This document shows, in pieces, positions 43,658 to 59,499 of a stretch of 64,000 nt of DNA. The stretch covers positions 1 to 64,000 of the IMG/VR virus record IMGVR_UViG_3300023109_003296. One strand, written 5' to 3'. Under the pieces are notes generated by a model that was not told the origin of the DNA, did no database searches, and was given only the letters and a program-made list of their open reading frames with translations. The first letter of the stretch is position 1, and every line of letters begins with the position of its first letter. A program made the position numbers and the translations under genes. This DNA is from a virus.

Positions 43658-46552
43658 TTAAGGCATTTCTATTATATCTATATTATTTCCAGAAAAATTC
43701 CATGCGCTATTATAATTTCCAGATTGTCCATTCGGTACGTAAATCTCCGTCAATGCTGGCATTGAATCAAAAGCAGTAGTGTCATCGAAACCTCCTCCAA
43801 ATGTAGGAGCAGGTCCCATAAAGAACAGTCCAGACAAACTGTTACATCTAGTGAATGGATTGACACCCCATTTAGTGACCGTTGAAGGAATTGTTACCTC
43901 TTTGAGGTTTGTGTTTGGATTAGAACTTTCCATTTGTAAGAAATATGAAGGTATATTTTCCAAACCTTCGTTCAAATAAACTCCGCTTATTGTCCTGTTC
44001 TTGCTAAATGAAAAACCCCCCATACCTGTTAACGAAGTGGGTGTATTTATTTCTCCTATCATGCATGACTGAAAACAATAACCAGGTATATACTCTAATC
44101 CATTATTGAAATTCACCACACTTAAGTTTGGCGAACTAATAAACGCTCTAGAACCAATCCCTGTTAAAGAAGCTGGCATTGTAACTTCAGTTATATTATT
44201 GCTTAAAGCAAAGCAGTTGGCTTCTAATTCCGTTATTGATGAAGGTAAAGTTATGCTTGTAAGATTATTACCATAAAATGCACTATTTTTAATCCCTGTT
44301 ATTGTAGATGGCAAATTAATTCCACTAAGTTTTGGACAGTAAGAAAACATGTTATCTCCAATATATGGTATTCCCTCGCCCAATGTAACACCACTTAAAA
44401 GAGAACAAGAAGTAAAAGATCTAGGATAAATATACTGTAAGCTACCCCCTAAGTTTACACTTGATAAGTTTGTACCATTAAAAGAACCGTAATAACTTTG
44501 ATAACTCACATATCCATCTAAACTCTCTATGTTTGGCAAATCAACATGACCAATATAAGGGTTTTGATAGAAAGCATGTCCATCTATTGTAGTTATAGTG
44601 CTTGGTAGATTAATATCTCCACTTATACCACATTGACGAAAAGCCTCTCTGCCTATTCTTTTTACTCCTTCTTGGATAAATACTCCAGACAAAGAATTTG
44701 AACCTTCAAAACAGTAATCATGAATACCATCAGCACCTGAAATCGTTCCTGGTATAGTTACTTCTGTAAGAGAATCGCAATTAGCAAAAACGCTGGAGGC
44801 TAATTTTTCTAATTGATTTAAATCTAAACCACTTAAAGATGAGCAATTACTAAACACACTATATTCCATCTCTTTTAAAGAATCTGGTGCATGAAACCAC
44901 TCAAGACCATTACACGAATTGAATGCTGAGTATCTTATAACCTCTAAAGAGTCCATTCCTTTTATTTCTTTTAATCCATTGGATGAGCTGCAAAATTGTG
45001 GAGGAATTTCCGTTATTAAAGGAGGAATAGTTATCTCTAATAACGAATTACAGAATTTGAAAGTGCTACCATCACCTAATGTTGTAAGACTATTAGACAG
45101 TCTAACACCAGAAAGAGAACTGCAATTATAAAATTGATTGCTTCTATTAAAATTATCTATATACTCCAAATCAATATACAACAAATCTGAACACGAAAAA
45201 AAAGTGTTTCCTCTAAGTTGAGATTGACCAGAAGACATGCTTACCCCACTTATATTTGTATTCTCCCAACAATTTGCACCCATATAAGTTACACTGTCTG
45301 GAATATCAATAAAACCACTAATATTGCTATTAATAAAAGCACTGAAATCAATTGCAGCAAGTGTTGATGGGAATTCAATTGTTTTCAAGCTATAGGTATT
45401 TTGGAAACAACTATTTCCAATATATGATAAAGTATTACCTAAATAAATACCAGAAAGAGAATCGCAGTTGCTGAAACAGCTTTGTCCCAATGATCCCATA
45501 TTATCTGGAAGCTCTACGTATTCAAGAGATTCACAATTATAAAAAGTAGAATCACTTAAAGATAAAACGTTGTTAACTGGATTAAACACAACCTCTCTAA
45601 GACCAGTGCAATCTTGGAAACAATTTATACCAATAGTTTCAAGGCTTGAAGGGAAATACAAACCAGACAAAACATCACAACTAAGAAACGCATTACTTCT
45701 AATTTCTTCAAGCCCCTCGTTAAAGGTAACCCCGCTTAAGTCATCACAAGCATTAAAAGCATTTTCACCTATCCCAGTAATATTTGAAGGTATTTCGACG
45801 CCACTTAAACTAGTACAACCATAAAAACCGTATCTATTAATAAATTCTAACCCAACACCGAAATTAACATAAAGAAGATTAGTATTACCATAAAAAGCAC
45901 TAGCTCCTAAATAAGTTAAACTATCAGGAAGTGTAACCCCAGATAAAGAATAACAATAACCAAAACCAGTTATCCCTATATATTCCAATGTATTAGGTAA
46001 ATTCAATTCCAAAAGAGACTCACAATTTTTGAAAGCTTCATATTCAATTCTGTTCAATGAACTACCAAGGTTGATCCCCGTAAGAGATATACAATCATTA
46101 AATGCTCTCGGTCCCATATCTTCAACAATATCCCCACAATTAACATAATTAACATTTGAGCAAGTTGCAAAACAATTATTACCTATTTCTAAAACTGAAT
46201 CAGGGATTTGTATTGAGGTTATATTGTCACAATTATAAAAAGTAGAAGTTTGCAATACAGATACGCCACTGCCTAGAGTTAATACCCCAGGCATTCCCGC
46301 ACTAAAAAAAGCACTAGTACCAATATTATTAACACTATCGGGTATTGTTATAGGGTGTTTAATTGACTCACATCCTTTAAATGCAGATCCTCTAATTTCC
46401 TTTAATCCTTCGTTCAAATCTACACTTTTCAACTTTGCGCAATCTAAAAAAGATTGCGTTCCAATACCAGTAAGTCCTGACGGCCAATAAAAAGTCTCTA
46501 AATTTATGCACCCGTTAAATGCATTATTATCTATGTGTGTTATAGTATTCAT
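43658..46552 (-). CDS. BspA-type leucine-rich repeat protein (possibly the C-terminal part of 46549..48135)
   Basis: Dozens of LxxIxxxAFxxCxxLxxIxIP repeats and a C-cap; starts mid-repeat. Confidence 0.88.
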   Translation of the reverse strand: MNTITHIDNNAFNGCINLETFYWPSGLTGIGTQSFLDCAKLKSVDLNEGLKEIRGSAFKGCESIKHPITIPDSVNNIGTSAFFSAGMPGVLTLGSGVSVLQTSTFYNCDNITSIQIPDSVLEIGNNCFATCSNVNYVNCGDIVEDMGPRAFNDCISLTGINLGSSLNRIEYEAFKNCESLLELNLPNTLEYIGITGFGYCYSLSGVTLPDSLTYLGASAFYGNTNLLYVNFGVGLEFINRYGFYGCTSLSGVEIPSNITGIGENAFNACDDLSGVTFNEGLEEIRSNAFLSCDVLSGLYFPSSLETIGINCFQDCTGLREVVFNPVNNVLSLSDSTFYNCESLEYVELPDNMGSLGQSCFSNCDSLSGIYLGNTLSYIGNSCFQNTYSLKTIEFPSTLAAIDFSAFINSNISGFIDIPDSVTYMGANCWENTNISGVSMSSGQSQLRGNTFFSCSDLLYIDLEYIDNFNRSNQFYNCSSLSGVRLSNSLTTLGDGSTFKFCNSLLEITIPPLITEIPPQFCSSSNGLKEIKGMDSLEVIRYSAFNSCNGLEWFHAPDSLKEMEYSVFSNCSSLSGLDLNQLEKLASSVFANCDSLTEVTIPGTISGADGIHDYCFEGSNSLSGVFIQEGVKRIGREAFRQCGISGDINLPSTITTIDGHAFYQNPYIGHVDLPNIESLDGYVSYQSYYGSFNGTNLSSVNLGGSLQYIYPRSFTSCSLLSGVTLGEGIPYIGDNMFSYCPKLSGINLPSTITGIKNSAFYGNNLTSITLPSSITELEANCFALSNNITEVTMPASLTGIGSRAFISSPNLSVVNFNNGLEYIPGYCFQSCMIGEINTPTSLTGMGGFSFSKNRTISGVYLNEGLENIPSYFLQMESSNPNTNLKEVTIPSTVTKWGVNPFTRCNSLSGLFFMGPAPTFGGGFDDTTAFDSMPALTEIYVPNGQSGNYNSAWNFSGNNIDIIEMP

Positions 46553-57651: not shown

Positions 57652-59499
57652 TTATAAAACTATATCAAATACCAATTTCCCTGCTGAATCTTTAGCTTGC
57701 CAATACGCAGTATCATACCCTTCTGCACCTATTGGAACATGTATTTTTCTAAGTTTTCTCATAGTACTTAGAGGGAAGGGTTCGCCTACTATATTTGGAG
57801 CTAATGGAGCATTTATATAAATATTATACACCTTATCACAGGCACGAAATGCATTATTTTGTATTGTTTTTATTGTACTCGGGAAATTGACATCAGTACC
57901 AATCCTCTTACAATTCCAAAAAGCTTGCTCTCCTATTACTTCAACGCCAGAAGGTATATCTAAATCTCCATAAAGATTAACACAACCCCTGAAAGTCTGA
58001 TAAGGTATTTCTTTTAGCGTAGGAGGTATAGCAATTTTAGAGTTAATATTCACACAACCCATAAATACTGAATCACCTAAACCTGTAAGACTCTCTCCCA
58101 AACCTAGATCCTCATCAAAACCATCACAACTAGAGAACGCCTCGTCTCCAACATACCTTATATTAGGTGGCAACAAAAGAGGACCAGTCATTGAACCACA
58201 GTTATAGAAAGCTCTAGCACCTAACTCCAAAATACCCCCTCCTAAAATCAAAGAATTATTTAACCCAGCACACGAATTAAAAGCATCGTCACCTATTCCA
58301 GTAACACTTCCAGGTATATTCAATAACCCCTGCAAGTTAGGCGCTGATTCAAATGCGCTTTCTCCTATAAATTTACAACCAGCACCTATTTTCAAATCAA
58401 AAATATCGGGATCTAATTCGAACCAGTTTGGAGGTATATCTTCAGAAGCTTGAGCAAGTAAATTATCATCACCGCCAAACGCTCGTGAAGAAAGAGTTTC
58501 TTCACTATGTTTCACTCTATCGGGAACAACACCAAAAGGATCCTCATCAAGTTTCAAATCAAGGTTATGAGAATCAAAACTGTTCCAAGTATGTGTCCAC
58601 TTCCTACAGACATACACCTTAGGTCTATTAAATACAGTATTGATTCTATGCTTAAACCTCTTATACCCATTTTTAGACTCTAAAAAATGAAGCATAGATT
58701 TTAATTGTTTAGTGCTAATTTCTGAAAAGTTATATTGAAGAGGGAAAGAAGCACTGTTGTCCTTAACCTTTCTTCTGTAAGGAAATCCGTCTGAATCACC
58801 GAATCTTTGAGTTTCCATAGGAACCGTTGCCGACTGACCAACATCAGGTTGCCAAAAAAAGTCTCTAGTCCAGTAGGGGCTATCCTCAAGGCTTGTAGAT
58901 GTATCTTGAGAGGAATCGTGGTCTTCAGTGCAATAATAAAAATTATTTAACCTATCTTGATACTCAAATTCAAGTCTTTGGTCATAAGCTATATCATTTT
59001 CTTCGTATTTTTTATTTTCTTGAACATAATAAATACTTTCTTCCCCTACGTACAAAAAGTTCAAACCAGTCCAATTGAGGTGTCCAGGCGATTCAGTAAC
59101 TTCAAACAAAGCAGATATTTTAAATGTATCGACATCTAATTGAGTTACAGAGTATTCCGAGCAATACCCGTTAACTGGTTTATATACGGTAGGGTCTGTA
59201 TCAAACAAAATCGGATCGATCCCTCTTTTTGATTCAAAAAAATTAGCTAGTTTTCTGGCGTCCTCTTCTTTAGCCTCGTAAACCATCCTATAATTAGCAT
59301 AAACATTATTTATACCAACTGGCATTATATTCAACCAATTATTGTTAGTAGTTAGAGCCTTATCCTTGGCCAAAAATTCTACATTAGAACCTTCTGTAGG
59401 GCAAGTGATATCACTAATACCCTCATAATCCGTTACTCCAGAGAAATTTCTAGTTCTGTCGTAAAGTAGATCATCGCTATCTATGTCTATATAGGCCAT
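57652..59499 (-). CDS. gpM/distal-tail-like protein (tandem domains) fused to BspA LRRs
   Basis: Two copies of an L..F.ESK.G...F motif; position downstream of the tape measure gene; C-terminal LRR cassette. Confidence 0.68.
   Translation of the reverse strand: MAYIDIDSDDLLYDRTRNFSGVTDYEGISDITCPTEGSNVEFLAKDKALTTNNNWLNIMPVGINNVYANYRMVYEAKEEDARKLANFFESKRGIDPILFDTDPTVYKPVNGYCSEYSVTQLDVDTFKISALFEVTESPGHLNWTGLNFLYVGEESIYYVQENKKYEENDIAYDQRLEFEYQDRLNNFYYCTEDHDSSQDTSTSLEDSPYWTRDFFWQPDVGQSATVPMETQRFGDSDGFPYRRKVKDNSASFPLQYNFSEISTKQLKSMLHFLESKNGYKRFKHRINTVFNRPKVYVCRKWTHTWNSFDSHNLDLKLDEDPFGVVPDRVKHSEETLSSRAFGGDDNLLAQASEDIPPNWFELDPDIFDLKIGAGCKFIGESAFESAPNLQGLLNIPGSVTGIGDDAFNSCAGLNNSLILGGGILELGARAFYNCGSMTGPLLLPPNIRYVGDEAFSSCDGFDEDLGLGESLTGLGDSVFMGCVNINSKIAIPPTLKEIPYQTFRGCVNLYGDLDIPSGVEVIGEQAFWNCKRIGTDVNFPSTIKTIQNNAFRACDKVYNIYINAPLAPNIVGEPFPLSTMRKLRKIHVPIGAEGYDTAYWQAKDSAGKLVFDIVL

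Follow-up and report, generated by a model that had tools for sequence, protein, structure and literature searches.

The virus record IMGVR_UViG_3300023109_003296 of IMG/VR is a contig of 89,844 bases, the first 64,000 of which are the main subject here (hereafter the window). The window contains an operon in which proteins of the phage tail are joined to long arrays of BspA-type leucine-rich repeats (LRRs). Open reading frame (ORF) calling placed five co-oriented genes on the minus strand after the tape measure gene, and these encode proteins of 273, 615, 3172, 528 and 964 amino acids (aa). The ORFs abut or overlap by 1-4 nucleotides (nt), except for a gap of 36 nt after the 273-aa gene. An initial annotation had given the lengths of the four LRR proteins, the stretch that their genes span and the position of the 273-aa gene, and our calls reproduce these exactly. 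The features of the operon, with the evidence for each, are as follows.

60357..64000, minus strand: tape measure protein, C-terminal part; the whole gene, which heads the operon, spans 60357-69884 of the contig and encodes 3175 aa
59536..60357, minus strand: undecorated 273-aa protein with two tail-tube domains of the T5 pb6/p140 type (AlphaFold2 (AF2) model, fold matches, synteny)
57652-59499, minus strand: 615-aa gene, whole (ORF)
58480..59499, minus strand: N-terminal 340 residues of the 615-aa protein, two predicted tandem gpM-type domains (PF05939, phrog_14)
57652..58479, minus strand: C-terminal ~275 residues of the 615-aa protein, LRR_5 array of ~10 units (Pfam; rough unit count by regular expression)
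48132-57650, minus strand: 3172-aa gene, whole (ORF)
56496..57650, minus strand: N-terminal ~385 residues of the 3172-aa protein, predicted double tail-tube domain (identity to the 528-aa N-domain; tree)
48132..56495, minus strand: LRR_5 region of the 3172-aa protein, ~2790 residues (Pfam, regular expression, collinear orthologue in the related locus L081)
46549-48135, minus strand: 528-aa gene, whole (ORF)
46996..48135, minus strand: N-terminal 380 residues of the 528-aa protein, double tail-tube domain (AF2 model, fold matches, tree)
46549..46995, minus strand: linker (~385-418) and LRR_5 stub (~450-528) of the 528-aa protein (model confidence, Pfam, fold)
43658..46552, minus strand: 964-aa protein, LRR_5 only, ~38 units (Pfam); start codon overlapping the preceding stop codon, that of the 528-aa gene (ATGA)

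The initial annotation had seen about 12.5 kb of BspA-type LRRs on the 615-, 3172- and 528-aa proteins and on a 964-aa protein consisting of repeats only. A profile search with the BspA-type Pfam family LRR_5 (PF13306; gathering cut-off 27.7 bits), which it had suggested as a check, confirmed this for all four large proteins. The scores were 956.6 bits for the 3172-aa protein (E 1.1e-293, 24 stretches), 593.6 bits for the 964-aa protein (E 2.3e-181, 9 stretches), 183.9 bits for the 615-aa protein (E 1.3e-54, 3 stretches, the best at residues 426-556) and 51.5 bits for the 528-aa protein (E 1.2e-13, a single stretch at residues 450-526). The LRR parts total ~275 + 2790 + 90 + 964, or ~4,100, residues, corresponding to 12.3 kb. 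Two PHROG families also match the repeats, and both are without an assigned function.

By a regular-expression count, the LRR region of the 3172-aa protein holds roughly 110 units of 24 aa, and motifs resembling the cap V.P..YN.Y occur at residues 740, 1965 and 3143, which weakly hints that the region may consist of three cassettes, each closed by a cap-like motif. The strands of LRR proteins are usually spaced by ~0.5 nm, and at this spacing the longest arm would measure ~50 nm if its solenoid is continuous. Apart from one trivial 21-nt row, a search for tandem repeats at the DNA level in the LRR region found nothing; the units are therefore old and not the product of recent duplications. The fold comparison with LRR_5 crystal structures covers the stub of the 528-aa protein (model residues 411-528), which superimposes on 4oju_D, 4h09_C and 6mlx_A with Z scores of 9.3, 8.9 and 8.8, respectively (root-mean-square deviation (rmsd) 2.1-2.6, 97-101 residues). 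These structures (6mlx being TpLRR) belong to BspA-type surface proteins, with which the window proteins share the repeat family by profile and, for the stub, the fold; in contrast to them, the window repeats are fused to phage tail ring domains. LRR adhesins of the BspA type are linked to Tannerella, Treponema and Trichomonas, and those of bacteria bind host tissue and matrix components. The LRR arms of the window would likewise act as surface adhesins.

We then considered the domains that carry the repeats. The N-terminal part of the 615-aa protein matches Pfam family Phage_min_tail/gpM (PF05939) with 50.2 bits (cut-off 39; E 3.7e-13) in two stretches, which upholds the gpM-like character that had been claimed for it, and residues 171-340 alone, where the second copy lies, score 22.4 bits (E 1.6e-4) over positions 3-104 of the 108 of the gpM profile. 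It also matches phrog_14, minor tail protein. Bare relatives of this protein, without repeats, likewise show two stretches, and one of them, in L092, scores 41.6 bits. BLASTP between the two halves of the region was weak (E 0.16), and we state the duplication because Pfam shows two copies and not on the grounds of this self-comparison. Judged by its profile, the N-domain thus appears to be a duplicated form of the distal tail protein gpM of phage lambda. The lambda protein is a single small domain, whereas the window protein combines the duplicated domain with 275 LRR_5 residues in one chain. Such a duplication is in keeping with a tail in which the remaining rings, too, are built of two-domain subunits.

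An AF2 model of the 528-aa protein (m2dc1533bd8e4), based on an alignment of 56 homologues, has a mean predicted local distance difference test (pLDDT) value of 76, with values below 50 at residues 385-406 and 413-418, which form the linker. When the model was searched against PDB with Foldseek, the top matches were tube and tip chains of T5/DT57C, the tube of P74-26 and the major tail protein of SH-Ab15497 (E 5e-12 to 1e-9). Alignment of residues 9-376 with VIA-align gave Z 18.9 for the T5 tube protein (9iny_A; rmsd 3.9, 289 aligned), and Z 18.9 and 18.7 for the chains of SH-Ab15497 (8xan_A) and P74-26 (8ed0_A), respectively (289-294 aligned). Single-domain tube and Hcp proteins match one half each of this N-domain, with Z ~8. 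The AF2 model of the 273-aa protein (m8cacf241e7ea; 42 homologues, pLDDT 78) is a double-tube fold and nothing more. Its best Foldseek match was 7qg9_G (E 2e-10, TMq 0.66), a chain of 298 aa that, going by the protein list of the paper on that map, is presumably p140 of T5. With VIA-align, it gave Z 18.0 for 8xan_A, 17.5 for 8ed0_A, 17.0 for 9iny_A and 16.5 for the T5 tip chain 9ioz_A (247-259 aligned). A p140-specific reading of the 273-aa protein was softened, as pb6-type and p140-type rows tie in Z. In a fold search against BFVD, the named rows among the best 50 were tail tube, major tail or minor tail proteins. Structure prediction with a fold search was the test on which the initial annotation had staked its tail assignment; the 528- and 273-aa models match tail-tube folds, and the gpM-type domain is assigned by Pfam.

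The N-domains of the 3172- and 528-aa proteins are paralogous (26% identity over 356 aa, E 4e-22), and through this identity to a domain with a modelled fold, the N-domain of the 3172-aa protein also appears to be a double tail-tube domain. The tube-like nature that had been proposed for both proteins is thus supported by the fold for the 528-aa protein and by identity to the latter for the 3172-aa protein. The 273-aa protein had been described as their LRR-free paralogue. It does have the same double-tube fold, but it is only a remote sequence relative of the fused N-domains: pairwise comparison aligned 69 aa only (E 1e-4). The profile of the 273-aa family matches ten stand-alone tube-type proteins (E 1e-6 to 1e-10). 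Better LRR-free counterparts are bare orthologues in relatives and two stand-alone paralogues of 374 and 382 aa encoded outside the window, which are 48% and 40% identical to the 528-aa N-domain, respectively, and 27-29% identical to that of the 3172-aa protein. The N-domains and the stand-alone paralogues match no Pfam family and no significant PHROG family; phrog_290, minor tail protein, matches the 374-aa protein weakly (E 0.0079). Against PDB sequences, the gpM-type N-domain and the profile of the 273-aa family gave chance-level rows only (joint range E 0.78-1.9).

The two stand-alone double-tube genes (382 and 374 aa) lie in tandem at 74008-76308 of the contig, on the plus strand. The pair is kept in the relatives L005, L013, L015 and L024, and its members form two sister groups in the tree described below; they may encode a tube made of two proteins, or a tube protein and a specialised ring. 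The tape measure protein belongs to the PHROG families phrog_3547 (E 1.5e-16), phrog_10030 and phrog_37649. Its length of 3175 aa implies an exceptionally long tail, in agreement with the P74-26-like tube fold; in relatives, the length is about 1,950-3,330 aa.

The 528-aa and 964-aa genes take the place of one gene in the relatives L003 and L004, where a single tube-LRR ORF of 1,569 aa was found, and the 964-aa protein corresponds to the C-part of the latter. In the window, the two genes overlap at an ATGA that falls midway through an LRR unit, and the frame is shifted there by one base. Short forms of 516-520 aa recur in three other clusters with 70-72% identity, from which it follows that the split is not a sequencing error; on the same ground, we rejected a pure pseudogene reading of it. 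We then predicted the complex between residues 430-528 of the 528-aa protein and residues 1-260 of the 964-aa protein. Its ipSAE was 0.83, a mark reached by 51 of 78 solved complexes and by 2 of 108 mismatched pairs, and the best of three non-LRR controls reached 0.00; this pass may reflect likeness only, because relatives encode the two chains as one uninterrupted gene and because solved structures include many LRR solenoids. The three runs share at least 98% of their contacts, with a partner pLDDT of at least 91. The predicted interface joins residues 502-528 of the 528-aa protein to residues 1-22 of the 964-aa protein, so that one solenoid runs across two chains. According to this model, the 964-aa protein probably stacks end to end on the stub of the 528-aa protein.

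Next, we compared the operon with those of relatives. From IMG/VR, 80 loci around homologues of the 273-aa protein were fetched, and 15 were viewed as maps. All 15 show the same order, i.e., tape measure, 273-type, gpM-type and tube-type gene, then shared downstream genes, ribonucleotide reductase among them; the tube-type ORF of L083, one of the 15, is a fragment of just 171 aa. In the census of the 80 loci, 67 of the 71 gpM-type ORFs that are complete at their 3' end are bare (the bare orthologues have 318-323 aa). The other four are extended, three with LRRs (L081, L082 and L093) and one with an extension without a Pfam match (L145). Likewise, 50 of 51 complete tube-type ORFs are bare, the remaining one having 299 extra residues (L158). 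Among ORFs cut by contig ends, 3 of 15 are already extended, two of them by more than 2,300 LRR residues. Around the 528-type N-domain, 79 loci yielded 101 ORFs, eight of which have more than 60 extra residues, LRRs in four cases. Because most gpM-type and tube-type genes of relatives are bare, the LRR arms are a lineage-specific gain.

The family of the tube N-domain is large and marine: a near-length search returned 900 proteins at E<=0.001, and among the 120 matches listed, most are bare, with ~375 aa, and 12 carry LRR_5. With the N-domain of the 3172-aa protein as query, 662 cluster representatives were found at E<=1e-3. Of the best 150, 67 have at least 450 aa, 15 of which match the LRR protein, and 12 of these 15 are giant forms of 1,361-3,938 aa, with N-domain identities from 76% down to 38%. 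LRR_5 is present in 21 of the 22 homologues that measure 925-2,640 aa. The orthologue in L081 is collinear with the 3172-aa protein and 51% identical to it over 2,720 alignment columns. As far as can be judged from these comparisons, the LRR arms are old and maintained.

These data bear on the possibility that the LRR proteins are not part of the virion at all, because the repeats are decaying or selfish insertions or because the proteins are non-structural and merely have tail-like N-domains. The junction between the 528- and 964-aa genes does look like a one-base frame change in a gene that L003 and L004 have in one piece, and most relatives are without any extension. However, the 3172- and 964-aa reading frames are intact, the orthologue in L081 is collinear, the giant forms persist among distant representatives and the short form is conserved, and we regard this explanation as highly improbable.

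A tree of 27 N-domains separates into two clades, both supported at 100/100. The N-domain of the 3172-aa protein falls in the clade of genes that follow gpM, where it forms an LRR subclade with those of L081 and L093 (100/98), which is sister to the bare 367-aa gene of L021. The N-domain of the 528-aa protein falls in the clade of the tandem, or major-tube, genes, together with the fused 1,569-aa gene of L004 (99/100). As the two are in different clades, the fusions arose separately on different anchors. The gpM-type domain is a third anchor beside the two tube-LRR proteins of different origin.

The initial annotation had proposed to look in related genomes for the same N-domains with other or no attached domains, and both were found. 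Besides being bare, the tube anchor carries a C-type lectin, Laminin_G_3 with FG-GAP, cadherin with He_PIG, or a set of malectin, cadherin, Calx-beta and FG-GAP domains. Such exchanges, seen at the level of protein sequence, fit anchors that serve as a socket for an exchangeable binding module. The module is also shuffled among relatives. In L021 (3743-12003), a bare gpM gene and a bare tube gene are followed by a 963-aa gene (LRR_5 stub, Ig and FG-GAP) and then by a tube gene with Laminin_G_3 and FG-GAP. In L031 (9998-17214), the second tandem-tube gene carries the C-type lectin and is followed by an unassigned gene of 967 aa. A metagenomic tube-domain fusion of 2380 aa, P0292, has a weak LRR_5 match together with Ig, malectin and FG-GAP and in addition matches AGS_C (PF18134; E 3.8e-12, 46.8 bits against a cut-off of 26.7), with no single stretch passing alone. 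AGS_C is a sensor domain of nucleotide-signalling systems and is odd in a tail protein.

The closest structural counterparts of the tube-type anchors are the T5 proteins pb6 and p140 and the tube proteins of P74-26 (8ed0) and SH-Ab15497 (8xan), which likewise have two tail-tube domains per chain (Z 16.5-18.9; the T5 structures compared were 9iny, 5ngj, 7qg9 and 9ioz). At the sequence level, pb6 and p140 show no relation to the window anchors by Pfam, PHROG or PDB sequence match. In T5, two-domain tube proteins form trimeric, pseudo-hexameric rings, and two pb6 rings are followed by a trimeric ring of p140 and then by hexameric Dit (PMC10038345). As an extra ring at the junction of tube and tip, p140 is wrapped by the p132 collar, which anchors the side fibres, and its C-terminus touches p132 (PMC10038345), so this C-terminus lies on the outside of the ring. 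The pb6 protein also has a flexible C-terminal decoration domain. It aligns to the 528-aa model only up to residue ~356 of its 464, and its decoration domain therefore sits where the LRR part starts in the window protein. In Ur-lambda, six copies of gpM form the distal tail ring, and the side-fibre collar is located at the junction of gpV and gpM (PMC12617516).

The side fibres of these systems (pb1/p132 in T5, Stf in Ur-lambda) are separate trimeric fibres on a dodecameric collar. The window operon contains no gene for a collar or a fibre; its arms are covalent parts of a predicted ring subunit, comprise up to ~2790 LRR residues and are not Ig-like. The likeness to side fibres is therefore one of presumed function and position only. 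Other tail proteins follow the same principle of a scaffold for an exchangeable binding domain. Phages of lactic acid bacteria have 'evolved' Dit proteins with carbohydrate-binding inserts, and the SPP1 protein gp17.1* has an FN3-like extension. The nearest case in print is that of the tail-associated DUF7941 proteins of phage Goslar, with predicted LRR/beta-helix domains. In all of these, both anchors and passengers differ from those of the window, and LRR_5 arrays as large as these, or an operon with three anchors, occur in none of them. We found no paper on LRR_5/BspA repeats in a tail tube or distal tail protein, supplements and subscription journals being outside the search. The LRR protein matched 22 of 50,697 phage records at E<=1e-8, all of them uncultured or unannotated. 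The arrangement, which had been called unusual, is so with respect to cultured and deposited phages, but not within the uncultured family, where most of the long homologues carry the repeats.

Tail-ring proteins with LRR arms are real and well supported. How they work is plausible but unproven, and with moderate confidence we favor the view that the LRR arms are covalently attached to trimeric rings, located where tube and tip meet, and take the place of side tail fibres. The contig, of about 90 kb or more, would then represent an uncultured marine phage of the siphovirus type that builds its tube and junction from subunits with two tube domains, three of which would close into a single pseudo-hexameric ring, the arrangement of T5 and P74-26. 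The junction rings would be encoded by the genes that follow the tape measure gene: a bare, pb6/p140-like ring (273 aa), a ring of duplicated gpM and another tube-like ring, formed by the N-domain of the 3172-aa protein. The latter two rings would each have gained a C-terminal solenoid of BspA-type LRR_5 repeats. A third anchor would have been added as an extra copy of a major-tube gene with an LRR stub (528 aa), on which the 964-aa protein would be stacked. Since in T5 the C-terminus of the same fold lies outside the ring, the solenoids should point outward; they would do so on flexible linkers, presumably three per ring, and the longest would comprise ~110 LRR units. The job of the arms would be the first, reversible attachment to a structure of the host surface, and the fibre of the lambda gpJ type would carry out the final receptor step. 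We propose the role of side fibres because T5 and Ur-lambda mount these on rings at the tube-tip junction.

Several observations weigh against this view, and some of them would agree with a different arrangement, in which the tube-LRR proteins, above all the 528/964 pair, co-assemble in many rings of the tube and make the whole tail sticky. The fold matches leave the distal ring protein p140 and the major tube protein pb6 tied within 1-2 Z for both the 528- and the 273-aa model, so that it is gene order that assigns the proteins to a junction ring. Yet gene order follows the classical logic only in part in this genome. In lambda, gpM precedes gpL, gpK, gpI and gpJ; here the gpM gene follows the tape measure gene with the 273-aa gene in between, and the gpL/K/I/J genes lie ~45-58 kb from it on the opposite strand. 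This logic is thus already broken. The 528-aa N-domain, being 48% identical to the 374-aa protein and inside the major-tube clade, might assemble into the tube along its length, by co-polymerisation, and not into a distal ring, and the second tandem-tube gene of L031 itself carries an extension, the C-type lectin. Decoration along the length of the tail would resemble the C-terminal Ig-like or FN3-like domains of lambda gpV, T5 pb6 and SPP1 gp17.1*. Against it stands the N-domain of the 3172-aa protein, which is orthologous to a separate ring gene directly after gpM and has only 26-29% identity to the tandem tube genes; a subunit of this size in many rings would, moreover, be very costly. In addition, gpM is distal in the published structure (PMC12617516). 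Overall, we consider decoration of the whole tail unlikely.

Three further results give the junction-ring proposal no help. A tblastn search with the N-domain of the 3172-aa protein and with the 374-aa protein found no match in the 50,697 phage records. The docking test of the 528/964 pair, whose controls were non-LRR proteins, does not discriminate between the 964-aa protein and any other LRR end as partner of the stub. Finally, the operon contains 67 promoter-like sites, where 69.3 were expected from shuffled sequence, and 4 terminator-like sites, where 7.1 were expected, and these counts are uninformative.

The divergence of the repeats also counts against an arm that reads a host receptor. 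Identity to L081 is 56% in the LRR part and 66% in the anchor, and with L093 the corresponding values are 35% and 53%. The LRR parts thus diverge only moderately faster than the anchors, unlike many receptor-binding tips, which are extremely variable. Arms that are not hypervariable would suit a particle tethered to polysaccharide particles, algal surfaces or mucus and not to its host, as has been proposed for the Ig-like decorations of capsids. Binding of tissue and matrix by bacterial BspA-type proteins points in the same direction, as do the cadherin, Calx-beta, malectin and lectin passengers of the anchors, modules for adhesion in general or for carbohydrates, and the full gpJ-type fibre, which is kept for the receptor step. 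The position of the genes, next to those of the tape measure protein and of gpM, nevertheless matches the sites of the side fibres in T5 and Ur-lambda, and we think that adhesion to something other than the host has a small chance of being the main function.

Turning back to side arms on junction rings, the proposal can be taken one step further. The ring subunits would be plug-in sockets for adhesins, and the phage would possess a three-tier, collar-less LRR device with three independent anchors, an arm of ~110 repeats and another arm made by solenoid complementation, in which the stub on the ring and the free 964-aa protein would join non-covalently. We put this forward only tentatively and would not be surprised if it failed. 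Should it hold, phage side fibres would have a third major architecture, that of LRR solenoids, in addition to trimeric beta-helix or coiled fibres and to tailspikes, and the LRR arms might be monomeric and read out by a trimeric ring.

The remainder of the tail tip is encoded at the other end of the window.

1302..9739, plus strand: tip genes of the lambda type, encoding a gpL-like (797 aa), a JAB/gpK-like (149 aa), a 215-aa and a gpJ-like (1657 aa) protein (Pfam, PHROG)

The Pfam matches are PF05100 (E 6.8e-36), Prok-JAB (E 5e-6) and PF13550 (E 9.6e-21), and the PHROG matches include phrog_18 and phrog_31, 'central tail fiber J'. With genes of the gpL, gpK and gpJ types, to which the gpM-type Pfam domain adds a further likeness to lambda, the phage therefore also has an ordinary central-fibre apparatus. 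The gpL match ends at residue 206 of the 797-aa protein, leaving a large unexplained C-terminal part, and a 558-aa protein encoded after gpJ (tip region 1302-11420, plus strand) has no family match.

Presumed head and packaging genes (~80000-85900 of the contig, minus strand) show almost no PHROG or Pfam matches, the only ones being a weak match to a portal protein (E 0.0016) and a weak one to the GPO scaffold-protease, below the cut-off. To judge from these matches, the head module appears very divergent. Within the window, the regions 13999-15858, 17742-22738, 37024-39668 and 41583-42644 contain phage genes for a DNA polymerase III alpha-type protein, an 818-aa ATPase resembling ATP-dependent proteases (phrog_4871) and both subunits of ribonucleotide reductase; at least two glycosyltransferases are also encoded in the window. 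All matches to the DNA polymerase III alpha-type gene among phage records have less than 60% identity. Twelve contigs of metagenome-assembled genomes contain relatives. Six bear labels of the Flavobacteriales type, which come from binning only, two of them from one genome, and the others are labelled Heimdallarchaeota, Verrucomicrobiales, Puniceicoccaceae, Halobacteriovorax, Eubacteriales and Alphaproteobacteria. A host among the flavobacteria is thus no more than a weak guess.

Host recognition by phages decides which bacteria get killed. Nearly all side fibres studied are trimeric fibres or spikes mounted on adaptor proteins, and here a binding arm appears to be written directly into the subunits of tail rings, using a repeat family of bacterial adhesins. 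The fold matches further indicate that a double-domain tube of the T5 type with extra junction rings is not confined to T5-like phages. If confirmed by a virion structure, the operon would represent a new modular display of binding domains on a siphovirus tail, possibly including an LRR solenoid reassembled from two polypeptides. It would also provide a natural set of passengers swapped on one anchor (LRR, lectin, cadherin, malectin and FG-GAP) for studying the evolution of host range, in a marine, uncultured phage family that is abundant and comprises hundreds of homologue clusters.

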